Positions 3,814 through 17,593 of a stretch of 17,593 nt of DNA are shown here, one piece after another. Below the pieces are notes generated by a model that saw only the letters and a list, made by a program, of their open reading frames with translations, had not been told where the DNA came from and did no database searches. The position numbers and the translations under genes were made by a program. Origin of the DNA: Candidatus Micrarchaeia archaeon. GTDB lineage: Archaea > Micrarchaeota > Micrarchaeia > Burarchaeales > JACRGF01. Where the stretch lies: the NCBI GenBank assembly GCA_038870455.1, contig JAWCPB010000024.1, positions 1 to 17,593 on the forward strand, given 5' to 3'. The number at the start of each line of letters is the position of its first letter. Positions within the stretch are counted from its first letter, which is position 1.

Positions 3814-4607
3814 AGGCAGGCAAAGTGGAGAAGTACATTCTCGAAAAAATAGAGCGTGAGGGAGCGCTCATCGGCGTGGTCATAGACCCGCTCGACCACC
3901 CTTCGCCAGAGGCGGCCGTGGCGGCAGCGGGCGGGGCGTGCGCGGCAGGAGCAGATTTAGTAACAGTTGGGGGTAGCACGGGCGCGCAGGGTGAGCTGCT
4001 CGACACAGTGGTGAGGGGGATTAAGGAAAAAGTGGACTGCCCTGTGGTCCTTTTTCCCGGTAACATCGCCACGCTCAGCAGGCATGCAGACGCGGTTTAT
4101 TTCATGTCGCTGCTGAACAGCCGGAATCCCTACTGGATTTCGCAGGCGCAGACGCTCGCCGCGCCCGTGGTCAAGGCACTGGGCATCGAGCCTCTGCCCA
4201 TGGGCTACATAGTGGTCGAGCCCGGCGGCACGGTCGGGTGGGTGGGCGACGCCAACCTCGTGCCCCGCGACAAGCCTAAGATAGCCGCCGCGCTGGCGCT
4301 CGCCGGAGAATTCATGGGGTGCAGGATGATATTCACCGACTGCGGCAGCGCCTCGCCCGCGGGCAGCGTTCCCCTCGACATGGTGAGGGCGGTCAGGCAG
4401 GCCATCAGCGTGCCCTACCTCGTGGCGGGAGGCATTCGCACGCCCAAAGAAGCCGCCGACATCATATCAGCCGGGGCGGACTGGGTGCAGATCGGAACAG
4501 CGCTTGAGAGGGCGGGCGAGAAAGGCAAGGCGTTCAAGGAATTCTTGCGCGCGGTCAAGGAAGCCGGCAGGAGGAGGGTATTGCCTTTTAAAGAAAAAAG
4601 CGCATAA
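3810..4607 (+). CDS. Geranylgeranylglyceryl phosphate (GGGP) synthase, archaeal ether-lipid biosynthesis
   Basis: VIDP, VGGST, PVVLFPGN, ADAVYFMSLLNSRNPYWI, PMGYIVVEPGGTVGWVGDA, AGGIR and GADW motifs of the archaeal (group II-type) GGGPS. ATGA overlap with the SDR gene. Confidence 0.93.
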   Translation: MKAGKVEKYILEKIEREGALIGVVIDPLDHPSPEAAVAAAGGACAAGADLVTVGGSTGAQGELLDTVVRGIKEKVDCPVVLFPGNIATLSRHADAVYFMSLLNSRNPYWISQAQTLAAPVVKALGIEPLPMGYIVVEPGGTVGWVGDANLVPRDKPKIAAALALAGEFMGCRMIFTDCGSASPAGSVPLDMVRAVRQAISVPYLVAGGIRTPKEAADIISAGADWVQIGTALERAGEKGKAFKEFLRAVKEAGRRRVLPFKEKSA

Positions 4608-4613
4608 TTATGC
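4586..4613 (+). promoter_or_regulatory. TATA box embedded in the GGGPS 3' end plus 12-bp palindrome
   Basis: TTTTAAAG at 4586-4593 is 21-28 nt upstream of ATG 4614. A perfect palindrome GCATAATTATGC lies at 4602-4613. Confidence 0.55.
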
Positions 4614-5090
4614 ATGGCAAAACTCTCGCGGCTCCGCCAGCGCTATCCAACACAGCAAGAGTGGGAAAAGCGGAAAGATGAGCTCAAAAAGGCTTTTATT
4701 AAATTCCCTTTTCTTCCCTATCACATCCAACGTCTTGAGGAAAAGGCCGATGCCGCAAATAAATCGCCCTGGTGGAAGAAAAAAGAGTTGATTGAAGAGA
4801 TAAGACAGGATGCAGAGAACATCCAGAAACCTCTTTCGGCCATTGGAGTGAAGATCAAAATTCTCGATGAAAAAGGGGAGGAATGGCCGGAGAATAGGGT
4901 TGAGGTCACTGATGTTGCACGCAAGCTCGCCACGTTAGACTTTGCCAATTTTATCGACAAGAGAGCGAATCAGCTTAAAAAAATTATAACATACGGAAAG
5001 CCGCTCTCCGTGCTCGATAAGCTCGCGAGCGACCTGAAAAAAATGATTGAGGAGGCACTGAAGCCCGTGCAGGGAAAACTTTTCGGGTGA
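4614..5090 (+). CDS. Hypothetical Lys/Glu-rich helical protein (158 aa) with C-terminal QGKLFG
   Basis: Clean ORF with its own TATA box, protein-like composition, and a GTGA overlap with the next gene. No family recognised. Confidence 0.75.
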   Translation: MAKLSRLRQRYPTQQEWEKRKDELKKAFIKFPFLPYHIQRLEEKADAANKSPWWKKKELIEEIRQDAENIQKPLSAIGVKIKILDEKGEEWPENRVEVTDVARKLATLDFANFIDKRANQLKKIITYGKPLSVLDKLASDLKKMIEEALKPVQGKLFG

Positions 5091-5725
5091 AGGTCATGAA
5101 CAGCCAGAAAAGCGGGAAAAAGCCGGCTGAGCTGGTCAATCCCAGCCTGTCCAGAGTCGGGAATAGACTCGTCCTCAAGGACCTGAACCTCGCCTGCAGT
5201 TATGTTTTTGGAAAGGAAGAAGGAGGGCGGTTTCCGTTTTTGTTTAAGATTGGGAAGAGCGCAGAACTGCTGGTCGAGCAGCCTAATGGAAGTATTTCAA
5301 GCGCGGACTTCGAAGAGCTCTGCAGGTTCGTCTCGCAAAACGTCAAAGTCCTTTCGAAACTCGAGGCGAACGAGGCACTCGCGCGCGTCCGGAACGCGTG
5401 CGAGAGGGAAGAGGACAGGAACAAGCTGAAAGTTGATGGAAAAATCAAGGTCGGCAAGACAGGGGAGGCGATCGAGCTGGATTTCCTGGCCTTCCGCATC
5501 GAAGGTGATGGGCGGCTGATTGTCGTGCCAAAGATTGGAACGTTCCTCAGCGCAGGAAAGGCATGGTTCGAGGTGTGGGATGGGAGCCCCAAAGAGAAAG
5601 TGGTTGAAGCGCTGAAGCCTGCTATTGTGAAAGTCAAGTCGGACGCTCCTCCTGATGTAAAGGCCTTTGAGGTCATTGACGGCGGGGTGGTGGTGACGGC
5701 CAGCGCGCCAGCCCAATCTTTTTAA
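5087..5725 (+). CDS. Hypothetical protein (212 aa; alternative start 5096)
   Basis: Coupled to the upstream gene by a GTGA overlap. Soluble, with a mixed alpha/beta-looking sequence. No family recognised. Confidence 0.7.
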   Translation: MKVMNSQKSGKKPAELVNPSLSRVGNRLVLKDLNLACSYVFGKEEGGRFPFLFKIGKSAELLVEQPNGSISSADFEELCRFVSQNVKVLSKLEANEALARVRNACEREEDRNKLKVDGKIKVGKTGEAIELDFLAFRIEGDGRLIVVPKIGTFLSAGKAWFEVWDGSPKEKVVEALKPAIVKVKSDAPPDVKAFEVIDGGVVVTASAPAQSF

Positions 5726-5726
5726 A
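5719..5726 (+). promoter_or_regulatory. TATA box (TTTTTAAA) overlapping the upstream stop codon
   Basis: Located 22-29 nt upstream of GTG 5748. Confidence 0.55.
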
Positions 5727-5747
5727 CTGGTTTACTGAAACGATGTT

Positions 5748-6257
5748 GTGAGCGAAAAGCCGTCAGTGGCATCAAGGGGAATTCCTTCCAGGGAGGCGCT
5801 TTACCTTCCGAGGCACGATAGTCCTGAGCTGCGGCGTTTTCAGGACGGCGAGGTCCCAACGCGCAATGTCTGGAGCCTCGAGGAGGTTGTGAACTTTGTC
5901 TTTCCGGCAAAGTACCAGCGGAAGTATCATGAGGCTGCGGTTGCTTTCCTGAAGTTTCTTTTCGAAAAGCAGAGGGTGAGCGGGGCCGAGACCGGTGAGT
6001 TCGTGCGAAGCGCGGGCATAAGCAAGGCCACTTTTTATAATAGAGTGCTGCTGCGCCTTAAACGCGTGGGGATGGTTAAGGTGGAGAGGGAGACTGTCGT
6101 GGCGCTGGAGAGCAAGCGAAAATACAGGCCCATGTTCATCTCGCTGTCCAAGACTTTTGGAAACTACTTGAACAAGATAGGCGAGTCGTGGCTCGCGATT
6201 GTTGATGACGCGAGGACGAGGAAGCTGGTGGCGGCTCAGGCAGAGGGAATTAAATAA
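5748..6257 (+). CDS. Putative winged-helix DNA-binding protein (169 aa)
   Basis: AFLKFLFEKQRVSGAETGEFVRSAGISKATFYNRVLLRLKRVGMVKVER fits HTH plus wing (GISKATFY...L...G.V). Confidence 0.75.
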   Translation: MSEKPSVASRGIPSREALYLPRHDSPELRRFQDGEVPTRNVWSLEEVVNFVFPAKYQRKYHEAAVAFLKFLFEKQRVSGAETGEFVRSAGISKATFYNRVLLRLKRVGMVKVERETVVALESKRKYRPMFISLSKTFGNYLNKIGESWLAIVDDARTRKLVAAQAEGIK

Positions 6258-6626: not shown

Positions 6627-7739
6627 ATGGGAGGGCTGTTCCACCGCCTGGAGGAGGAAGAGGGGGTCTTCAAGGACGAGCGGGTGCTCCTTCCGGAGTA
6701 CTTGCCCGAAGTGCTTCCCCACAGGGAAAAGGAGATTAGGGAAATCGCGCTAGCGGTGAGGCCCGCCGCGTTGGGAAAAAGGCCGGAGAATATTGTCTTG
6801 ATTGGCCCAGCAGGGACAGGCAAGACTTCCTGCGTCAGGCACGTTTTCAGGGAACTCGCAGAGTACAGCAAGCGGGCGCTGCCCATTTACATAAACTGCT
6901 GGGAGTCACCCACGAGGCACGCCGTACTATCCAAGCTCGCCAAGTCGCTCGGCGAAATCCTTCCGAGGAGGGGCATCGCGACTGACGAGATTGTCGAGCA
7001 GATTGCAGGCGCGCTGCGCAGGGAAAGGCGCGTGCCCGTGCTCGCGCTCGACGAGCTGGATCGTCTGCTCGCAAACCCGGAAGAGGCCGGCGTGCTGTAT
7101 GACTTGGCGAGGGCCAAGGAAACGCTGGGAGGCGATGTGGGGCTCGTGGGAATAACCAACAACGAGGCGTTCTTCGCAGGAATTGACGAGAGAGTGCGCT
7201 CTTCGCTGGGGAGCCGGTCCCTCGCCTTCAGGCCATATTCCCCGCCGCAGCTTAAGGACATTCTCAGGGAGAGGGCGAAAGAGGCTTTCTTCGACGGCTG
7301 CGTTGAGGCTGACGCGCTTGCCGTGTGCGCCGCGCACGGGGCAAAGCACGGCGGCGACGCGCGCGTGGCTATCGAAGCGCTGTGGAGAGCCGGCAGGGAG
7401 GCTGAGAGAGAGGGCGCGAAGGTTGTGAGCGTGCAGCATGTCAGGCGCGCCATAGCCCAAGCTCAGCCGGAGCCGAAAAAACTGGCCAAGCCCGAAGTCA
7501 GGCTAAACGAGATAGAGCAGAGGATAATTGATTTTCTGAAGAAGAGAGGCAAGGTCACCAGCGGCCAGCTGTATGCAGCCTTCGGCCATACTGACAGGTA
7601 CATTCGCGCGCACATCGACCGCCTCGAAAAGCTCGGCATCATAGAGACGCGCATACTCGAGACAAAGGAGGAAACGGGCGGCAGGGGAAAGACGAGGGCG
7701 ATCAGGCTGAAGAGCTGGCCCTTACCCGAGCGCGCTTAA
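6627..7739 (+). CDS. cdc6: Orc1/Cdc6 family AAA+ ATPase (replication initiator family)
   Basis: YLPEVLPHREKEI, Walker A GPAGTGKT, IYINC, Walker B LALDELD, FRPYS..QLKDILRER, sensor-2 GDAR, and a C-terminal winged helix. Confidence 0.93.
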   Translation: MGGLFHRLEEEEGVFKDERVLLPEYLPEVLPHREKEIREIALAVRPAALGKRPENIVLIGPAGTGKTSCVRHVFRELAEYSKRALPIYINCWESPTRHAVLSKLAKSLGEILPRRGIATDEIVEQIAGALRRERRVPVLALDELDRLLANPEEAGVLYDLARAKETLGGDVGLVGITNNEAFFAGIDERVRSSLGSRSLAFRPYSPPQLKDILRERAKEAFFDGCVEADALAVCAAHGAKHGGDARVAIEALWRAGREAEREGAKVVSVQHVRRAIAQAQPEPKKLAKPEVRLNEIEQRIIDFLKKRGKVTSGQLYAAFGHTDRYIRAHIDRLEKLGIIETRILETKEETGGRGKTRAIRLKSWPLPERA

Positions 7740-9027
7740 TGAGCTCGCCGAGCTCGTCTATATGTTGCCTTCTCTGCGACACTCCGAAAAGCGCTAAGCT
7801 CACATCATCTCTACTTCCGCTTATCTCATGGGCAAGCCCTGCGATGGCGCTCGGCAAAAGGCGCCCACGACTTTCAGCGGCAGCCAATATGCTCCTGGCA
7901 TTTGCCAGCGAGGGCTCGCTGGAATTTCTGATTTCTTCTAGCACGGCTTGCAGCTCCGCCTCATCGCTCTGACTCAATGTTCTGTGCACTTCATCAAAAC
8001 TAGCAAGTAACTCATTTATCTCTTTAGTGTTGAGAGGCCCAGAGCTCAAGCGCGCTGTAACATCGCTGAAGAATTGGCTCCATGTGCTCCATTTTGTCTC
8101 AGAGGGCTTCATGTGCTCAAATTCTGTAATATGGTTCCTGAGATAGTCCAGGATGGCCGGAAGGTCGTGTGTGTGCACTTCCTCCTCTCTCTGTCTGCCC
8201 ACAAGGATGCCAGTGTAGCGGCCGATGTTCTCGGTCATATCGTAGGTGTTTATCTCTTTGAGTTTGCCGATGGCCTCTCTCTGGCTTCCTGCGCGAATCA
8301 TCCCGAACGGTGTATTGATTTTCATGGTGGGGTGAATTTTCCTCAGGAGGCCGCGTTGGGGGTGCAGGAAGGGCAGCGCGCCGAAGAGGGGGGCGGCGAG
8401 CAGGCCGAGCGGGCCGGCCGTGAGCAGGCCGGTGAGCCCAGCGATAACGCCGAGCACTATTGCAGAAACTGGTTGCACCCACAATGGCCCGTCTCCCTCA
8501 ATGCTCCAGGCATGCCACCCCATACCCCTGTACAGATTCTTGGTGCGAAGCAGGCGGATGGCGTCAGTGATGCGGGTGTGAATGCCTCTTATAGAAAATT
8601 CATTTGGGGAATAGGGTGGGCTGACAGTCGGGGTGCCGCCTGTGGGATGCACTCCAACCGTCTCCCGCTGCTGCAGATCGTGAATACCGGCTGCAGGTGC
8701 TGTGTCGGCATTTCTTGCCCACTCCGCCCTATCCGAAAGAATCTCGCCGAGCAGCCTTTGGGTGAGCTCAACGGCCTCCCATTCATAATCGAGCTTGACT
8801 TGCTTCCATCTCCTTCGCGCGCTCACAGCTGCGTTCAGGTTTGGGGTTATATTTCGCCAGAACCATCTTTCGGGGTTTATCCATCCGTGATAGGCAAGAA
8901 AGGCGAACGGTCTCAATGACAGGGGAACGTGCGCCCGATAGTTCGCCCTCTCGTGCGCAAGACGGAGTTCTCTCTCTACAAATAGTTTGTCGATTTCAGC
9001 ACGCGCCTGGGCAAGCGGTCGCACCAT
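7702..9027 (-). CDS. Hypothetical membrane-associated protein (441 aa)
   Basis: Long ORF with a central hydrophobic Gly-rich segment (VSAIVLGVIAGLTGLLTAGPLGLLAAPLFGALPFL, about 8469-8365) and a helical C-terminus. It has a TAATG overlap with the upstream gene and a convergent 38-nt overlap with cdc6. Confidence 0.75.
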   Translation of the reverse strand: MVRPLAQARAEIDKLFVERELRLAHERANYRAHVPLSLRPFAFLAYHGWINPERWFWRNITPNLNAAVSARRRWKQVKLDYEWEAVELTQRLLGEILSDRAEWARNADTAPAAGIHDLQQRETVGVHPTGGTPTVSPPYSPNEFSIRGIHTRITDAIRLLRTKNLYRGMGWHAWSIEGDGPLWVQPVSAIVLGVIAGLTGLLTAGPLGLLAAPLFGALPFLHPQRGLLRKIHPTMKINTPFGMIRAGSQREAIGKLKEINTYDMTENIGRYTGILVGRQREEEVHTHDLPAILDYLRNHITEFEHMKPSETKWSTWSQFFSDVTARLSSGPLNTKEINELLASFDEVHRTLSQSDEAELQAVLEEIRNSSEPSLANARSILAAAESRGRLLPSAIAGLAHEISGSRDDVSLALFGVSQRRQHIDELGELIKRARVRASSSA

Positions 9028-10627: not shown

Positions 10628-11200
10628 TTGCGCGTCGGAGTCATCGGCGTTCAGGGGGCGGTCAGCGAGCACCTCGCCGCGGTGGAGAGGCTGGGCGCGC
10701 GCGGAGTGTGGGTGAGGCGGCCCGAGCAGCTGAAGGGGGTAAGCGCGCTCATCATTCCGGGTGGCGAATCGACAACCATATCGCGGCTGCTCGCCGAGAG
10801 TGAGCTGTTCGAACCCGTGAAAAAGCTCGGCCAGCAGGGCCTGCCAATCCTCGGCACGTGCGCGGGCCTCATCCTGCTGGCGAAAAAAGGCGACGCGCAG
10901 GTGGCCCGCACGGGCCAGCGGCTGCTGGGGCTCATGGACATGAAGATAACGAGAAATGCTTTCGGCAGGCAGAGAGAGAGCTTTGAGGAAGAGGTGGAGG
11001 TGGCGGGCGTGGGCCGCGTGGTGGGCGTTTTCATCCGCGCGCCGGCCATCGACAAGACTTTTGGGAAATGCATTCCGCTCGCCAGCATTGATGGCCGCAT
11101 CGTGGCCGCGCGGCAGGAAAACCTGCTGGCCACCGCCTTCCACCCCGAGCTCACCGACGACTTGAGGATTCACCAGTTCTTTCTCGATTTCGTCCGATAA
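10628..11200 (+). CDS. pdxT: Pyridoxal 5'-phosphate synthase glutaminase subunit
   Basis: QGAVSEH, PGGESTT, GTCAG (catalytic Cys), RNAFGRQ, FIRAP and FHPE (His/Glu). TTG start directly after pdxS. Confidence 0.96.
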   Translation: MRVGVIGVQGAVSEHLAAVERLGARGVWVRRPEQLKGVSALIIPGGESTTISRLLAESELFEPVKKLGQQGLPILGTCAGLILLAKKGDAQVARTGQRLLGLMDMKITRNAFGRQRESFEEEVEVAGVGRVVGVFIRAPAIDKTFGKCIPLASIDGRIVAARQENLLATAFHPELTDDLRIHQFFLDFVR

Positions 11201-11234
11201 GCATATTTTAAAGAGGAGAAGGCGCAATAATTTT
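11194..11234 (+). promoter_or_regulatory. Promoter of the giant-protein operon
   Basis: TTTTAAAG at 11206-11213 is 22-29 nt upstream of ATG 11235 (leaderless spacing). Confidence 0.6.
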
Positions 11235-14200
11235 ATGCGCGCCGCGCTCGTCCTGCTGTTGTTGGCCGCGCTCGCCGCCGCCGATGAGCAGTGCACGGGA
11301 TGCACGGTCACCAACCTTAACCTCAAACTCTATGAGGCGGAGACGGGCTACCAAGCCGAGGCCGAGCTCAGCTATGTCCGCGTGACGGCAGTCTCGTTTC
11401 CACCCTTTTTTGATGTTGGGAAGATAACGCAGCCCGTGCCCGAGGCTGGGGAGGGCAACAGGCTCGAGCGAGGGCCGCTCGCGGGCGAAAGCATCTCATT
11501 CTACTACTATGATGCAGGGCAGAAGGCTTATGTGCTGCTATGCGGGCCGGTCACCACCGATCCCAATGGACTGGCGGTGTGCAGCCTATCTGGCATTCCC
11601 GCCACGAGCACTTGCACCAACATAAAAGCAAACTACTCGGGCAGGGAAGAGTACAAGCCAAGCGAGAGCGCCAGGCTCATCCACTGCCCGGCAAGCGCCA
11701 TGCCATTCTCACTGACCAACATATTCGGCTCCGAGACGCAGCGCATGGGTTACGCCTGCCTTCCCCTGTTCATACTGGCAGGCCTTTTGTTTTCTTACAT
11801 GTACGTGGTTGGCAAGAGTCCCCTCACGTTGTTTGATATTACCACCCCGCGCTTGCCCAAGCCCAAGAAGCTGGCATTCAAAAGAGTGAGAAGGCCGGAG
11901 GGCTGGAAACAGGCCACTCGGGTATACGGGCTGGCGAGCATTGGTTTTGCCAGCACGTTTGCCCGCATCTCCGAGGCATACGCCAAGCAGCTCAAAGAGG
12001 TCGCTCATAGCATGCTCCAGCCATCCGAGGCAAACGCCGTGGCCAGGGATATTGACAGCGCGCTGGCAAAGAGAAAATCTGAAGAGAGGGCGCTAGCGCT
12101 CGAGGCCGTGTATGACCGACTAGTGAGGGAATACAGAAGACAGGGCGAGCCCTCCGCGCTCGCGTTTGCCATGAGCAGGCTCCAAAGGACGCGCTACGGC
12201 GTGCTGCGTTTTGTCGAATCCGAGAAGGTGCACGCCGAGGCAGAGAAGATAGTGCACGCGGCCGCAGGCATACCGCGCTGGACGACAAGAGGCATCCGAA
12301 TTCCGGGCACAAGATACTATGCTCAAGTTCCCGGGCTGGTGTTTGCTGGCGAGGCGTACGGCTCGGTGAAGATGGTGGTAGGTGTGGGGTTGAGAGCGCT
12401 GCGGGCCGGCACAGCCGGCCTCGCCCTTCTCGGTGTGAAAGCGGCAAAACGGGTCACTCACATCCCAACAGGCGCCGAGGAATGGCTGCGGAGGCAGGCA
12501 GGCTTTCTCACCCAGCTGGCAGGGCAGTACGTGGTCGACCACCAAGAGGATCTGCGGGAGATTGTCGAACACAAGATGCCCAACGAGGTGAAGGCGCAGC
12601 TCATCCTGAGGCTCAGCCGGGAGCTCGCCGCCACAGCAAAGCTGCTCAATGCAAGCGACATCGAAGTGCTGCGCGTGCGCGCGCTCAACCCGGAGAATGG
12701 TGACAGGCGCTTCGAGGAGCTGTCCAATGTGGCGGCCAACGCCCACACAGCGCTGTTGGGTGAGTTCAACAGGCTATATGCCGATGCCGAGAATCCGGCG
12801 ACAGCAGCCCGACTCGCCGCGCTGAATGGCATGATGATGGAGCTGACAGAGGCGTGGAGCACGTGCATGAGCCACTGGAATAACCTGAGCCTGATAGAGG
12901 CGGAATGGCGGGGGCGGCGCATGAGCGAGGAGGATTACCACAGGAGGGTGAGGGAGATTGCCGATGAGGTGCTCGCATTCAACCAGCGCTTCATTGAGAG
13001 GGAGAGACAGGAAGCTGCCCGGCAAGGGAGATATCCCACCACTGCCGATGTGGAGTGGGAGCTTGACAGGCAGTTTCTGCTCACCGACCCTCATGAAAGG
13101 AGGTTTGAGACTTTCTCCAGGCTTACAAGTGATTTGGCACGCAGGCCCACGCTGAATTTGGGGGAATTTGAGGAGAGGGCGCGGACTGGCGTCATCAATG
13201 CTCTTGGCGATGGGGCTGCGGACTACAGGGAGGGAGTGCTCGAGCGCACCTACGGCCCGCTTGGTGAGGCGCGCAGGCAGCAGATCATGCTGGAGGAACT
13301 CAGGGAGCTGGCGAGAAGGCGCGGCATCGGCGTGACCGCCGAGAGTCTCGAGGAGCTGAGGGCACAACTCATTCAGCAGGGCGGCGAGGAGTGCGTGCGC
13401 GACATCGCGGTTATCGAGAGGACGTGGCGCGAGCGGTATGTCGATGAGCAGAGGCTTCACATGCTCGAGGGATTCGCCGAGCAGCAGGGCATACAGAATC
13501 TCGCAGAGCTCGCGCGCAGGCAAGACATGCTGCGCGCGGTGGGCGAGTCGATGGAGCGCGTGATGGGAGAATACAACAGGCCGCGCGAAAACGCAATCAA
13601 CGCGCTCGCCGATGAGCTCATCAGCGCGGGCGTGCTGGACGCGGGCGTGAAGAAGCGGCCGCTGGCGCAGAGGATAATGCGCATTTCTGAGGCCGAGTCA
13701 AACAACAGAAGGACAGTCAACATACTGCTGAGGGCGGCCAGAAAGGCTGGGCGCATCAGGGAGGACCTCACGCGGCTCAGGTTCGTGGATGCTGCGCTCC
13801 ATGATGAGCTTCGCACGGCCGATCCTGCAAGGAGGGAGGAGTTGCTGCGTGTCAACCTTGAAAGGCTTTTCGATGCCGGCTGTCTGGTTCACGTCGGAGC
13901 TACAGAGGGCGCCACCGTGCGCAGGAGGGACTTCTGGAGCCTGGTGGACATACTCGAGAGCACGGGGCTGGCGCGTAGGGAGCGCGGCCGGGTGATCGTT
14001 GAGACGGAGGGCGAGCGGGCCGAGATCATCGACACAAGAAGAAGGCTCGATGAGCTCGGCGTGCTGAGGCCCGGAGGGGCGGTCACCTATGAGATGACAC
14101 AGCAACTGCCCATGATAGCGCAGGCAACGGGCTGGTACGTCTTCCCGATTGACGATCCCAAGGCAATCAACACCATCAGACTATCCAAAGACGACGTGCC

Positions 14201-16616
14201 CATCAACGTCGAGCTGTGGTTCAGATGGGCCGATGGCACGGTGGAGAGGTATGATCGCAACAAGCACGCCGCGGCCCTCAGAAACAGACAGGGCGAGCTC
14301 ATGGCCCAGGCCAGGAAGCCGCTCACCCTGCGCGAGGCGTTCGAAAAGCCGAGCGTGTACTCCCTCTACGGATTAATTGAGAGTCACACCCTTCATCCTC
14401 TGCTGGCAGGCCTTGAGCGGGTGGTGATGGCCGCGACCATGCCGCGCGTGCAGGAGCTGTACGCCGCCAAAGCCTTCATAGAATACTCATCGCAAGTTGC
14501 ACGTGAGTTCAAATCAGAATGGGAAAAGGGTCTTTACAGCCAGTGGATGGCCGACCTGCTCAAGGAGGGAGGCACGGCTACCAGGAGCAACTTCACAATG
14601 TTGCGCGATCTGATGAGAGCCATCGATGCCGGGGGCGGCGCCGAGTACAGGGATGTTGATGGGTACTTTGGGGAACTGACAAGAGCGTTCGGCGCGCAGA
14701 GGCTCGGGGAGGAACAGGGAGGCGTGATGGTGTTCCAGAGGGCAAGAGTCGAGGAGGTGCTGAGGGGGGTGGAGAGAGAGCTGGGCGAGCTCGCCCGCTA
14801 CAACGCCGTGTACGAGGAGAGGTACAAGACGCACGGCGAGCGACTGGACCTTGAGGAGACGGTGATACCCTCACTGCTCCAGGAGAGGGAGGAGCTCCGC
14901 AGGCGCATGCAAAGATACGTGGGGCTGGCCGCGGCCGCCAGAGGAAGGGGCGATGAGACGCTGGCGGCATCGTATGAGAGAACGGTGGAGAACACAAGGA
15001 GGGAAATTGAAAGGTTGGATGAGAGGATCGCGAGAGCCAGGAAGAAGGCCGAAATCCTCCGCCTGCGCGAGAAGGCGTGGTGGCAGCTGAACAGCGATCT
15101 CAGAAGATACAGGCGACAAGTCAGAGAAAGGCGCGCCGAGCTTACCGAGAGAGAAGAGCTCGCGCTTACCAAGAGAGAAGAGCTCGCGTTTGAAAAGAGA
15201 GAAGAGCTCGCGTTTGAAAAGAGAGAAGAGCTCGCGTTTGAAAAGGAGATCGTGGAGGGACTTTCGGATGCGCTGTACTTCATGTATCACGTAGAGACCG
15301 TACGCCTTCCCATGCGCTACAAAACGCCCAGAGCGCACTCGGCGGCGTACGGCGCCTCGCTGTTCATTCCGGGCGGCTATGTGTGGGGGCCCATGAGTTA
15401 CCTGCATCCCATCGACCACATGGCCGGCAAATCATCGATGGGCTTCCTGTGGGGGCTCACGCTGAGCATGGAGGACCGCTTTGGGCACAGGTTCTTCAGG
15501 CTCACCAGGCCGTTCATACTGGCACGCCAAGGCATTCCATTCACCACCGACCCTGTGCAGGGCTACAAGCCGCACTCCTGGCTCAAGGCCACGTGGTACC
15601 TGATTAAGGGCGAGACATTCACCAGACCGGGCGAGGCTCTCGTGCCGAGGTACAAGAACAGGATTTACCTCGATGAGCTCAGGGGATATCGGTGGAAGCT
15701 CAGCCCGGCCGGCCGCTATCCACGCGAGGAGAGGTTTGCCGGCTGGCACGGGCTCGTGCCATGGCTCTCATACATGCTGAACGAGACGACCGGGGTGAGG
15801 GATGAAAACATGGCGTTCACCTTCCTCAAGGACAGGCTTCAGCAAATAACGCCCGAGCAGTCAAGGGACCTTGAGCTGCGCTCAAGAGGGCCTTTCTCGC
15901 CCGCCAACTACAACACTTGGTACACCACCTACCGCGGGCCCAATGCCATAAGGATGGGTGCTGCGATGGCGCGCTTTATCACTTTCAACTACCCACACCT
16001 GGCCACCCCCGCCTTGAGGGAAGCGGCAGAGCTCGAGCTGCTGCTCAAAAGCCGGAGCCTGCCTGAGCAGCTGAAGATGCTTGAGGATGAGTACGAGTTC
16101 CTCAAGCCCTGGAGGCAGCTCTCGCTCGCTTACGCCATGCCGCCCATCGCGATGTACGAGCTGACGCGGTGGCTGGTAGCCAAGGCGAGCTATCGCTCCA
16201 CATACGAGGAGCGCGAGAGGGCTCTTCAAAGCGGGCTGTGGAGAGTGAGCGCGGGCTTCAGGCGCAGATTCTGGGGATATCTGGGCCTCAGCGCGGTGAA
16301 GTGGACGGCCATTGCGGCGGCCGGAGTCACGGCCGGTCCGGTGGGCGCGGGCGCGGCCTACGGTGCATGGAGCTACATCAACTCTTATTATCCTGTCTAT
16401 CCACCCAACACGCTGGCGCAATGGTTCATGAAAAGGCGGGCCTCGCAGAGATACCCGCAAACGCATACCGATTACGCCTGGAAGACGGCGGAATGCCCGC
16501 ACTGCGGAAGTCACATCGGCGTGTTTGCACACTGGTGCCCGCACTGCCGCCAGAATGTTGACATGGGATGGCGGGCTCGGTGGGCGAGTCAACTCTCTGG
16601 TGGGGTGAGTCACTGA
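11235..16616 (+). CDS. Giant (1793 aa) membrane protein: signal peptide, Cys-rich ectodomain, TM helix, long helical/coiled-coil region, hydrophobic hairpin, C-terminal zinc ribbon
   Basis: Uninterrupted 5.4-kb ORF. Signal MRAALVLLLLAALAAA; 6 Cys in a beta-rich region (aa ~17-170); TM aa ~173-192 followed by GKSPLTLFDITTPRLP; Glu/Arg/Leu-rich body; hydrophobic aa ~1679-1715; CPHC-x10-CPHC at aa 1754-1771. Confidence 0.88.
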   Translation: MRAALVLLLLAALAAADEQCTGCTVTNLNLKLYEAETGYQAEAELSYVRVTAVSFPPFFDVGKITQPVPEAGEGNRLERGPLAGESISFYYYDAGQKAYVLLCGPVTTDPNGLAVCSLSGIPATSTCTNIKANYSGREEYKPSESARLIHCPASAMPFSLTNIFGSETQRMGYACLPLFILAGLLFSYMYVVGKSPLTLFDITTPRLPKPKKLAFKRVRRPEGWKQATRVYGLASIGFASTFARISEAYAKQLKEVAHSMLQPSEANAVARDIDSALAKRKSEERALALEAVYDRLVREYRRQGEPSALAFAMSRLQRTRYGVLRFVESEKVHAEAEKIVHAAAGIPRWTTRGIRIPGTRYYAQVPGLVFAGEAYGSVKMVVGVGLRALRAGTAGLALLGVKAAKRVTHIPTGAEEWLRRQAGFLTQLAGQYVVDHQEDLREIVEHKMPNEVKAQLILRLSRELAATAKLLNASDIEVLRVRALNPENGDRRFEELSNVAANAHTALLGEFNRLYADAENPATAARLAALNGMMMELTEAWSTCMSHWNNLSLIEAEWRGRRMSEEDYHRRVREIADEVLAFNQRFIERERQEAARQGRYPTTADVEWELDRQFLLTDPHERRFETFSRLTSDLARRPTLNLGEFEERARTGVINALGDGAADYREGVLERTYGPLGEARRQQIMLEELRELARRRGIGVTAESLEELRAQLIQQGGEECVRDIAVIERTWRERYVDEQRLHMLEGFAEQQGIQNLAELARRQDMLRAVGESMERVMGEYNRPRENAINALADELISAGVLDAGVKKRPLAQRIMRISEAESNNRRTVNILLRAARKAGRIREDLTRLRFVDAALHDELRTADPARREELLRVNLERLFDAGCLVHVGATEGATVRRRDFWSLVDILESTGLARRERGRVIVETEGERAEIIDTRRRLDELGVLRPGGAVTYEMTQQLPMIAQATGWYVFPIDDPKAINTIRLSKDDVPINVELWFRWADGTVERYDRNKHAAALRNRQGELMAQARKPLTLREAFEKPSVYSLYGLIESHTLHPLLAGLERVVMAATMPRVQELYAAKAFIEYSSQVAREFKSEWEKGLYSQWMADLLKEGGTATRSNFTMLRDLMRAIDAGGGAEYRDVDGYFGELTRAFGAQRLGEEQGGVMVFQRARVEEVLRGVERELGELARYNAVYEERYKTHGERLDLEETVIPSLLQEREELRRRMQRYVGLAAAARGRGDETLAASYERTVENTRREIERLDERIARARKKAEILRLREKAWWQLNSDLRRYRRQVRERRAELTEREELALTKREELAFEKREELAFEKREELAFEKEIVEGLSDALYFMYHVETVRLPMRYKTPRAHSAAYGASLFIPGGYVWGPMSYLHPIDHMAGKSSMGFLWGLTLSMEDRFGHRFFRLTRPFILARQGIPFTTDPVQGYKPHSWLKATWYLIKGETFTRPGEALVPRYKNRIYLDELRGYRWKLSPAGRYPREERFAGWHGLVPWLSYMLNETTGVRDENMAFTFLKDRLQQITPEQSRDLELRSRGPFSPANYNTWYTTYRGPNAIRMGAAMARFITFNYPHLATPALREAAELELLLKSRSLPEQLKMLEDEYEFLKPWRQLSLAYAMPPIAMYELTRWLVAKASYRSTYEERERALQSGLWRVSAGFRRRFWGYLGLSAVKWTAIAAAGVTAGPVGAGAAYGAWSYINSYYPVYPPNTLAQWFMKRRASQRYPQTHTDYAWKTAECPHCGSHIGVFAHWCPHCRQNVDMGWRARWASQLSGGVSH
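15141..15245 (+). repeat. In-frame 24-bp tandem repeat (KREELAFE units)
   Basis: AAGAGAGAAGAGCTCGCGTTTGAA occurs exactly three times (15171-15194, 15195-15218, 15219-15242), preceded by a variant copy GAGAGAGAAGAGCTCGCGCTTACC (15147-15170) and a partial CTTACC. Confidence 0.95.
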
Positions 16617-17593
16617 AAAAATCAGTTTTGTTGCTCGCGCTGCTACTGGCTGGCTGCCTTCAGAGCATGCTGTGGCGGCATGAAGACGTGTTAGCTGGCG
16701 CACAGCCCAACACTCAACTGAGCAGCGTTGCCGGCACTGATGAATGCTATGACACCGGCCCGTGCCTGTGCTTTGTTTGCACCAACAAAACCTCGGGATG
16801 GTGGATTTTTGCCGAAACATCGCTGGCCGAAGGCAACTGCACATTCATGTCCTGCAGTGGTGGTAATCCCAACGATCCTTTTTACATAAGCAACATCCTG
16901 TCTGACGAGAACACCTACCTCAAAACATTCATGATCGGGCAGGGCGCCACTTTTGCGGAGTTTGATGAGGCCAATCAGTATGTGGGGGCGCTTCCGCTGG
17001 CGGTCAAATGGCTAGTGAGAACCGATGGCCAGCCTCCTTACATCCCAAGCCGGAAGATGACCGAGTGCTATCTCGGGCACAACGTCATTCCGGCCTATGT
17101 GATTTATACAGGCGGAAAGCTTGGTGCGGCGAGCGGGTCGGCCTTCGCCGCGCAACTTGCGGCCGAATTGAAAGACGTCGGGCCGGTCATTGTGGTGCCC
17201 GAGGCCCGCTTTGACGCCACCAACTCGGGCGAGGTGGGCGCGGTGATGGCCGAGGCGGCCGCGCTCAAGGCAGGCTGCCCGAACTGCCTTGTGGCGTTTG
17301 TTCCCCGAGATGACCAGGCATTTGGGAATAAAGAAGCAGTGATGAGTGCGCTCTCACAAGCCAACATAGATTTGGTGGGCAGGGGAGTTCTGCTCAATGA
17401 GCTGAGCGCGCGCGAGCCGCCGTGCGATGCCGAGGAGGCGCTGCTCGAGGACATCGTGCCCTTTGCCAGAGAGGCGATGAAGTACTTCCACAAGCCGACA
17501 ATCATACTCTTCTATGGCGCCAGCGAGGGAGGCGCGTGCGGGCTGACCCGGCAGCAAATTGCCGATTTCAATGATTACATCATGCGGAACATC
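16613..17593 (+). CDS. Cys-rich lipoprotein with possible glycoside-hydrolase-like TIM-barrel region (partial, runs off right edge; not in ORF track)
   Basis: Manual translation is open for 327 codons: (M)KKSVLLLALLLAGCLQSMLWRHEDVLAG...DECYDTGPCLCFVCTNKTSGWW...GNCTFMSC...GPVIVVPEARFD...LKAGCPNCLVAFVP...IDLVGRGV...KPTIILFYG... It has an LAGC lipobox. The likely CTG start has SD GGGGTGA at 16602-16608; alternative starts are ATG 16568 and GTG 16580. Confidence 0.82.
   Translation, partial: MKKSVLLLALLLAGCLQSMLWRHEDVLAGAQPNTQLSSVAGTDECYDTGPCLCFVCTNKTSGWWIFAETSLAEGNCTFMSCSGGNPNDPFYISNILSDENTYLKTFMIGQGATFAEFDEANQYVGALPLAVKWLVRTDGQPPYIPSRKMTECYLGHNVIPAYVIYTGGKLGAASGSAFAAQLAAELKDVGPVIVVPEARFDATNSGEVGAVMAEAAALKAGCPNCLVAFVPRDDQAFGNKEAVMSALSQANIDLVGRGVLLNELSAREPPCDAEEALLEDIVPFAREAMKYFHKPTIILFYGASEGGACGLTRQQIADFNDYIMRNI

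Follow-up and report, generated by a model that had tools for sequence, protein, structure and literature searches.

The Ced and Ted DNA-import systems are built of VirB2-, VirB6- and VirB4-like parts, and the sections of the account drawn on here do not mention DPANN archaea (PMC9905601). Type IV secretion systems (T4SS) of monoderm bacteria and Patescibacteria have wall hydrolases with an SLT domain, often with an added M23, CHAP or LysM domain, and VirB1 homologues in Patescibacteria T4SS often have added M23/LysM domains, as described in sections of PMC12102498. Sections of two further accounts describe giant bitopic SPEARE-type proteins of Nanohaloarchaeota, with an Ig-repeat ectodomain, a transmembrane (TM) segment, a VirB4/TraG-like ATPase and a coiled coil (PMC10266531), and large SLT-domain proteins in Woese- and Pacearchaeota (PMC8204110). 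Here, these systems are compared with a pair of adjacent genes on contig JAWCPB010000024.1 of a Candidatus Micrarchaeia archaeon. The entire contig, 17,593 bases, is the window that was analyzed, and the assembly is 1.04 Mb in size and 90% complete. The pair consists of the gene for a 1793-aa protein (BIG; 11235..16616, + strand) and, just 3′ of it, a lipoprotein gene (LIPO). To our knowledge, the ways in which DPANN archaea attach to and feed on hosts are poorly understood, and hardly any of the molecular parts involved are known for Micrarchaeota. Our leading reading, to which we give about an even chance, assigns the pair to a T4SS/Ced-like envelope machine as an accessory, lineage-specific module: BIG would serve as a membrane-docked hub on the cytoplasmic side, and LIPO would be an outer part that binds or cuts glycans.

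The pair is real and is explained by no named family. A total of 66 loci with a BIG-type gene were examined, 44 of A-type and 22 of B-type or other. LIPO lies directly 3′ of BIG on the same strand in 40/44 A-type loci across Micrarchaeia (the window, 19/23 loci retrieved earlier and 20/20 retrieved later), and gene overlaps of 4–8 nt are frequent among relatives. Among 61 relatives, 33 encode both BIG and LIPO, 5 BIG only, 3 LIPO only and 20 neither. Genomes in the co-occurrence and locus counts are related, hence non-independent, and counts are given without a statistic. Linkage of the two genes, on which an earlier note on this DNA had made its reading depend, is conserved in related genomes. 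That note also had the operon continue past the window, with ATPase, pilin and other Cys-rich genes to be sought downstream. A continuation to further machine genes was not borne out. In a genome of the same genus (the genus-mate), a 632-aa LIPO gene is followed by an 85-aa open reading frame (ORF) and a convergent response-regulator gene that closes the unit. No ATPase, pilin or further Cys-rich gene lies 3′ of LIPO in the closest relative, and no third gene is conserved 3′ of LIPO among relatives. Full-text searches found no literature describing the BIG-LIPO pair or the six-gene array introduced below; the searches covered main texts, and supplementary tables may list the families unnamed.

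In relatives, the pair is found beside genes of a multi-protein membrane apparatus, in line with the suggestion in the earlier note that BIG is a machine component. The apparatus is encoded by a row of six paralogous polytopic membrane-protein genes (the array). Array genes were scored as nearby when inside the retrieved stretch of ≤20 kb, and are nearby in 33/66 BIG-type loci (15/44 A-type, 18/22 B-type or other). The array is also carried by 37/38 BIG-positive genomes, and the exception is a genome that is 71% complete. The A and B types were told apart by gene order and by a quick tree of the BIG N-terminal modules, in which the A/B split has SH-aLRT 90 and both clades span many families. 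In 13/20 B-type loci, a giant LIPO paralogue of 1130–1660 aa lies between the array and BIG-B (L076, L079-L083, L085-L090, L092). This paralogue is a Cys-rich lipoprotein with the FxxGxGxxFxEFE and GIIG barrel motifs of LIPO, and 11/11 tested have no Pfam match. Because B-type loci repeat the array-LIPO-BIG order, these genes make up a module of eight whose duplication was early.

In two other families, f13 and f17, the array is in one operon with T4SS-type genes in 4/5 loci. The operon encodes a pilin homologue, a 243-aa membrane protein, the six array proteins, two 277-aa proteins and a VirB4/HerA-like ATPase. The 243-aa protein has six TM helices and the 277-aa proteins are single-TM paralogues (L093-L095, L097). 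The operon also keeps a protein of ~790 aa whose TM helices are at about residues 10 and 550. Neither the profiles of BIG, LIPO and the array nor the queries with the pilin and the ATPase matched the 243-aa, 277-aa or ~790-aa proteins. The window's genome encodes a VirB2-like pilin (Pfam T4SS_pilin, 29.6–30.1 bits vs. a cut-off of 26.6; TrbC, 26 bits) two genes from a 522-aa ATPase that matches DUF87/HerA, AAA_10 and P-loop_TraG. Gene order on this contig (C3, L051:9700-16254) is pilin, 270-aa protein, 522-aa ATPase, 253-aa protein and 876-aa protein, and the pilin gene overlaps an upstream glycosyltransferase-methyltransferase gene. The single array of the genome is on contig C1 (C1:21978-33229, − strand; L052), where the six array genes precede a gene for a 436-aa FlaI/VirB11-type ATPase and, after it, two genes for FtsZ paralogues. 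The FlaI/VirB11-like ATPase was considered as a conserved array partner and rejected, as it adjoins the array in family f1 only and its orthologue is on other contigs in other families. Neither the pilin nor the VirB4-like ATPase of the window's genome, used as phmmer queries, was found in 65 BIG loci (L014-L018, L022-L041, L053-L092).

Ced, Ted and bacterial T4SS resemble the arrangement in the other families in having a VirB2-like pilin and a VirB4/HerA-like ATPase in an operon with polytopic membrane proteins. Unlike Ced and Ted, which have one such membrane protein, the array has six paralogues, and BIG and LIPO have no counterpart in Ced or Ted.

LIPO is present in the window as the 5′ 342 codons of a Cys-rich lipoprotein gene (16568..17593, +) that is cut by the contig end. 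The orthologue in the genus-mate is 632 aa in length and 88% identical to the window's part. The remainder of LIPO was not found elsewhere in the window's assembly. The BIG stop codon is TGA at 16614-16616, and in-frame LIPO starts are available at ATG 16568, GTG 16580 and CTG 16613. The earlier note had the two genes overlap by CTGA. The genes do overlap and CTG 16613 is in frame; however, an overlap of 49 nt from ATG 16568 is more likely, because ATG and GTG lie upstream in frame and the orthologue begins with the same MAGSVG... residues. A lipobox, L-A-G-C with Cys30, is read at 16646..16657 (+) in the LIPO translation. It agrees with the pattern [LVI][ASTG][GA]C (LLAGC, KKSVLLLALLLAGC, Cys30), and lipidation is predicted. 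A lipobox-like xxGC/xxAC is found in 16/18 aligned family members.

The LIPO orthologue was modeled with AlphaFold2 (AF2) from 18 family rows, with a mean predicted local distance difference test score (pLDDT) of 71 and a predicted TM-score (pTM) of 0.76. A (beta/alpha)8 barrel spans aa ~72-443, with pLDDT of 80–96 over most of it. Foldseek matched the model to GH2, GH39, GH5 and PslG with E 1e-8, and VIA-align gave Z 20.7 and a root-mean-square deviation of 3.5 over 283 aligned residues (1uuq), with all of the top 50 rows being barrels of glycoside hydrolase (GH) type GH-A. The predicted LIPO fold is a clan GH-A (beta/alpha)8 barrel. It starts at 16781 (16781..17593, +), and the window holds the barrel to aa 342. 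The fold is like that of clan GH-A members (GH5, GH2, GH39 including PslG, GH10, GH26 and GH53), with Z of 17–21 over ~260–300 residues. Unlike these, LIPO has no sequence-level match: nothing was over threshold in Pfam, NCBIfam or PDB sequences. It also differs in a Cys-rich N-terminal sub-domain; seven Cys are conserved in 37–38 of 38 LIPO family sequences. Retaining GH-A enzymes place their nucleophile after strand 7. In the hmmalign alignment of the 38 sequences, with strands taken from the model, Glu211 at the end of strand 4 is Glu in 31/38, which is like clan GH-A. By contrast, Glu321 after strand 7 is Glu in only 11/38, although it is present in the orthologue of the window lineage, and GH activity is predicted at most.

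The C-terminal part of LIPO appears to be a weak, partly degenerate SLT-like domain. Pfam SLT (PF01464) matches 6/37 LIPO family members at E ≤1e-3, mostly around the cut-off; three score 23.2, 20.7 and 19.5 bits (cut-off, 21.3), and another three reach 2.2e-5 as their best E. The family profile matches the lytic transglycosylase 9vi7_A with E 0.0014. At the E-S catalytic position of SLT, the family has Glu in 18/38 and Asp in 5, with Ser as the next residue in 21/38, and the orthologue has E-G. The AF2 pLDDT across the SLT-like part of the orthologue is 37–76. The orthologue of the window lineage has no SLT or other Pfam match, and its SLT-like part lies past the window end. Peptidase_M23 is found in 2/37 members, the LIPO orthologues L022:7252-10020 and L023:10353-13283, which have it at the C-terminus (best E 2.4e-25) alongside the barrel and the SLT-like part. 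FtsW/RodA was not found in the window's genome, 90% complete as noted, and one Mur-ligase-type gene only was detected. Therefore, a murein-type LIPO target would be foreign. A stand-alone 489-aa protein with a clear SLT domain (58.8 bits) is encoded on contig C4 of the same genome (L050:11273-12742, −), next to major facilitator superfamily transporter and phosphoglycerate kinase genes.

LIPO is comparable to the VirB1, PrgK and TraG(pIP501)-type hydrolases in being exported, membrane-tethered by prediction and encoded with T4SS-type genes in relatives, and some members share the SLT and M23 domains. The proximity to T4SS-type genes varies: the array is nearby in 15/44 A-type loci, the array-pilin-ATPase operon is present in 4/5 f13/f17 loci, and the parts are on three contigs in the window's genome. 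Unlike the VirB1-type hydrolases, which have no such barrel, the conserved core of LIPO is the GH-A-like barrel. In most members the SLT part is degenerate or weak, the predicted LIPO anchor is a lipobox instead of a TM helix, and the producer of LIPO appears to make no murein.

BIG is a giant protein under purifying selection along its entire length, yet just ~40 residues are conserved across the class. Its gene starts 34 nt past the pdxT stop and encodes a bitopic A-type paralogue. A promoter-like A/T-rich box (AAGCATATTTTAAAGA ... GCAATAATTTT; 11195..11234, +) was read upstream and is conserved in the genus-mate. The element AAGCATATTTTAAAGA sits ~27 nt upstream of the BIG ATG, and a TTTAAA box is also found in a genome of the same family (the family-mate). 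The last ~50 nt before the ATG are kept in the genus-mate even though DNA farther upstream is unrelated there, a pattern that would fit a promoter of its own for BIG and a leaderless or near-leaderless mRNA. The promoter named in the earlier note is present as a conserved box with a predicted promoter function.

The 1793-aa ORF with a small Cys-bearing exported domain is present as that note had described. The putative signal peptide is aa 1-16 (MRAALVLLLLAALAAA; 11235..11282, +), within a hydrophobic segment at aa 3-21, and cleavage is predicted after it. The exported domain, aa 17-172 (11283..11750, +), is probably of beta type. It has Cys at 20, 23, 103, 116, 127 and 151 and a weak match to Pfam Big_3_5 (aa 104-146, 14.4 bits, under the cut-off). 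The Cys and TDxxG columns are conserved in 23–26 homologues, and the ratio of nonsynonymous to synonymous substitution rates (dN/dS) is 0.12. The TM helix and juxtamembrane signature (C-L-P...MYxxGxxPLxLFDITTPRLPxPK) span aa 173-215 (11751..11879, +), based on Kyte-Doolittle hydropathy and the alignment. The sole strong TM helix is aa 174-192 (Kyte-Doolittle 2.11), opens with a near-invariant Cys and is followed by GKSPLTLFDITTPRLPKPKK (also GKSPLTLFDITTPRLPKPKKLAFKRVRR). All 23 aligned homologues keep G193, P196, D201 and P205 without change, and dN/dS is 0.03 at aa 173-215, so chance does not account for the motif. The note had seen a single TM helix with a motif-like stretch next to it, and both are borne out.

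The region that follows, aa 216-1240 (11880..14954, +), is Arg/Glu-rich, fast-evolving (dN/dS 0.17–0.36) and predicted to be cytoplasmic. Across aa 216-1690, the composition is R 12.7%, E 10.8%, A 11.1% and L 11.1%, with 3 Cys in all. A long single helix or coiled coil is predicted at aa 1241-1350 (14955..15284, +; AF2 helix 2-112 of the modeled piece, pLDDT ~68–84). The ~1500 aa of Glu/Arg-rich helical sequence in the earlier note is therefore correct in composition, with helicity modeled at moderate confidence at just aa 1240-1350. A 24-nt tandem repeat encoding REELAFEK units (15148-15249, +; 4.3 copies by Tandem Repeats Finder) lies within this helix, and the genus-mate has another number of copies, seen as a gap of 24 aa in the comparison. 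An aromatic-rich C-terminal domain, predicted to be cytoplasmic, spans aa 1351-1683 (15285..16283, +) and is the best-conserved part within the family, matching the family-mate with E 2.7e-48. Next comes a Gly/Ala-rich hydrophobic stretch at aa 1684-1715 (16284..16379, +) with positive charges flanking both sides. The second hydrophobic region of the note exists but stays below the TM threshold, and may be a re-entrant membrane hairpin. A candidate C-terminal zinc ribbon, CPHC-x10-CPHC, is at aa 1754-1771 (16494..16547, +). Four Cys are conserved in 10 sequences (C515, C518, C529 and C532 of the alignment), the Pfam DZR score is 13.6 bits vs. a cut-off of 27.3, a regex matches 8/26 homologues, and AF2 pLDDT is ~62–71. 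The C-terminal domain is alignable to orthologues of four families in the window's order, as are the hydrophobic stretch and the zinc ribbon.

About 1600 of the 1793 BIG residues are predicted to be cytoplasmic, because positive charges follow the TM helix, Cys number 3 in 1475 residues vs. 6 in 156 in the ectodomain, and a zinc ribbon is predicted. Therefore, BIG would not be one of the large surface proteins to which the earlier note had compared it. The analogy to VirB6/TraG does not hold either, as BIG has one TM helix rather than a polytopic core of at least five and no Pfam match. A ruler or scaffold role is possible and compatible with the data.

Selection on BIG was estimated against the genus-mate, with dN/dS of 0.20 over 1764 codons. 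Constraint is tightest at the TM helix and motif given above, followed by aa 1351-~1690 (0.079), and loosest at aa 461-900 (0.36). Profile searches found homologues of the BIG N-terminal module in 81/201 Micrarchaeota genomes sampled. The closest homologue in the database is a Candidatus Micrarchaeia protein, and a word-index homologue search with BIG matched just 2–3 relatives. By single-protein search, just aa ~80-290 (ectodomain, TM helix and motif) are recognizable across the class. An exact motif scan of 185,579 species genomes gave 25 matches, of which 13 have TM context and are all Micrarchaeota-type records. The other 12, in bacterial records, were dismissed as chance matches, out of frame or without TM context. 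At locus L040 (G013 contig C5), two adjacent giant ORFs of at least 3480 aa and at least 3098 aa lie on the same strand. Near the N-terminus of the first is the BIG TM-motif, and an array is ~20 kb away on the same contig.

The pair is uncharacterized, as the earlier note had held: nothing in Pfam, NCBIfam or PDB sequences matched BIG over threshold. No enzyme motif was recognized in BIG by Pfam or as a Walker A, and no full-length match to a characterized family such as SMC-like or S-layer proteins was found. The Walker A pattern [AG]xxxxGK[ST] is not in BIG, and sporadic, non-conserved matches occur in 4/26 homologues. An SMC-like or ABC-type coiled-coil ATPase was therefore rejected on the lack of a Walker A and of Pfam/NCBIfam matches, and an S-layer protein was dropped as its defining features are missing. 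SPEARE-type proteins are like BIG in being giant DPANN proteins that cross the membrane once, in their link to T4SS-type genes and in a cytoplasmic coiled-coil part, which in BIG is predicted. Unlike SPEARE, BIG has an ectodomain of ~155 aa vs. thousands and no P-loop, and no sequence similarity was detected. The SPEARE-type reading was rejected on ectodomain size, the missing P-loop and the lack of an AAA/TraG Pfam match.

In the reading of BIG and LIPO as an accessory module of a T4SS/Ced-like machine specific to Micrarchaeota, the six paralogous polytopic membrane proteins would form the machine core, within a set that includes a VirB2-like pilin and a VirB4/HerA-like ATPase. LIPO would be lipid-anchored on the outer face and would bind or cut glycan of a partner's or its own envelope at the machine site, in a role likened to that of VirB1/PrgK-type hydrolases serving conjugation systems. 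BIG would cross the membrane once, with a small disulfide-bonded ectodomain facing LIPO or the envelope, and its invariant TM/juxtamembrane motif may dock it onto the membrane core. The cytoplasmic part, with its C-terminal domain, hydrophobic hairpin and zinc ribbon, could then be a hub or tether that positions the machine or couples it to cytoplasmic partners. In the window lineage, the pair would have been relocated away from the array and provided with its own promoter. Complex prediction with the BIG ectodomain (aa 17-172) and LIPO (aa 31-632) gave a score of 0.00 (mark 0.32) with unfolded controls, and counts neither way.

Several results weigh against this reading. The array is absent from the retrieved stretch in 29/44 A-type loci, and in family f8 BIG has no adjacent LIPO in 4/4 loci, which are all four of the A-type exceptions. 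In the window's genome, BIG-LIPO, the array and the pilin/ATPase genes are on three separate contigs (the array on C1 and the pilin/ATPase genes on C3), and the pair has its own promoter-like box. BIG and LIPO are dispensable for the core machine, because f13 and f17 have the full pilin-array-ATPase operon without either; the BIG profile was found in 0/56 f13 and 0/36 f17 genomes, and a LIPO protein search of 5 f13 genomes and 1 f17 genome found nothing. The window's genome, at its 90% completeness, gave no match to Pfam CagE_TrbE_VirB. In the ESM Atlas, array proteins matched only archaeal clusters without a name, and a lead to CedA1 scored 0.78, short of the 0.9 bar. The hydrolase character of LIPO is doubtful, because of the frequent absence of the strand-7 Glu and the SLT-like Glu and the lack of a Pfam match in the window lineage. 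BIG itself has no detectable similarity to any T4SS component or anything else. The whole protein had no usable match in the ESM Atlas, and phmmer and profile iteration found no homologue beyond its own family. An exhaustive phmmer search with aa 1330-1793 (464 residues) against 1.84 billion representatives gave 4 matches, one to the zinc ribbon only. Fold prediction also failed: AF2 of aa 1240-1793 from a 10-row alignment gave a mean pLDDT of 45 and pTM of 0.19, with moderate confidence only at the ~110-residue helix and the zinc ribbon and pLDDT below 50 at aa 1351-1683.

A more far-reaching version, which we consider somewhat unlikely, makes BIG, LIPO and the six paralogues a trans-envelope machine of a new type, restricted to Micrarchaeota and derived from a conjugation system without being one any longer. 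Its channel would be hetero-hexameric, with LIPO as an outer glycan-gripping lipoprotein and BIG as a giant inner hub setting position or gating. It would serve to hold a host and take up host material, and the A/B duplication would have given two machines with different partners or cargo. In another reading, the pair is no part of a secretion machine. Here, the pair would be self-contained, with LIPO trimming surface glycans or an S-layer glycoprotein of its own cell. BIG would act as a landmark or regulator comparable to FimV/HubP or to FtsEX-EnvC control, placing or switching LIPO from the cytoplasmic side, perhaps during division. FimV and HubP are bacterial polar hubs in which a small exported domain and a single TM helix are joined to a very long cytoplasmic region, charged and poorly conserved, and to a C-terminal element that is conserved. 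BIG recalls them in architecture, and the analogy extends to architecture only; unlike them, BIG has no LysM or FimV C-terminal motif (Pfam, E up to 1) and comes from another domain of life. A self-contained pair would agree with its isolated position and own promoter in the window's genome, with the end of the operon after LIPO in the genus-mate, with the 29 A-type loci that have no array nearby, and with the array operons that f13 and f17 run without BIG or LIPO. Two FtsZ genes come after the array in the window's genome, but this neighborhood was examined in that genome only. However, both BIG/LIPO paralogue types recur near arrays (33/66 loci; B-type, 18/22), 37/38 BIG genomes have arrays, and Pfam and motif searches found no ATPase partner and no LysM or FimV motif. 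We regard envelope remodeling by the pair alone as unlikely.

The SLT and M23 matches (6/37 and 2/37 LIPO members), together with the profile match to a lytic transglycosylase, could instead point to an offensive or host-directed wall hydrolase, with BIG as its anchor or export helper. LIPO would then breach the wall of a bacterial or archaeal partner for attachment or feeding. The missing FtsW/RodA and the single Mur-ligase-type gene of the genome are in favor of a foreign target, and a similar role has been proposed for the large DPANN SLT proteins in sections of PMC8204110. Wall breaching is nevertheless quite unlikely. Murein-type signatures are weak and are missing in most LIPO members including the window lineage, the universally conserved part is the barrel, without a conserved second catalytic Glu, and LIPO is predicted to be lipid-anchored to its producer, not released. 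Wall breaching also leaves 1600 cytoplasmic BIG residues without a role. In a further reading, BIG would handle substrate or act as a coupling component, taking in DNA or protein on behalf of a T4SS-like channel, with the zinc ribbon and the basic helical part binding nucleic acid at the membrane. Conservation of the C-terminal zinc ribbon across families of the order, the Arg content (12.7%) and the predicted membrane anchoring beside channel genes in relatives fit such a component. However, Pfam and motif searches found no Walker A or other NTPase, relaxase or helicase signature, the ribbon is recognized by regex in just 8/26 homologues, and Glu is almost as frequent as Arg. A coupling role was judged very unlikely.

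The pair offers two points of entry. LIPO is predicted to be an exported lipoprotein with a recognizable sugar-enzyme fold, which makes it an expressible and assayable handle, and the invariant TM-juxtamembrane motif of BIG could be used to probe for the membrane partner of BIG. Should the link to the six paralogues, the pilin and the VirB4-like ATPase be true, conjugation-type machinery would have been elaborated in this lineage into an organelle of symbiosis, paralleling Patescibacteria.

Other archaeal genes in the window were identified with Pfam and encode geranylgeranylglyceryl phosphate synthase (PcrB), Orc1/Cdc6, a TrmB regulator and PdxS/PdxT. The window ORF at 1450-2508 (+, 352 aa) has no Pfam match. 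Another, at 7702-9027 (−, 441 aa), also has no Pfam match; it overlaps the Orc1/Cdc6 gene at the end of the latter and lies ahead of a gene for an HhH-GPD glycosylase. Three co-directional ORFs without a Pfam match (4614-5090, 5087-5725 and 5748-6257) lie in a stretch of low G+C at 4001-6257, where G+C falls to 0.50–0.55 vs. ~0.60 elsewhere. On contig C4 of the same genome, the MCM helicase gene (L050:1296-5000) is split by an intein with a LAGLIDADG domain.

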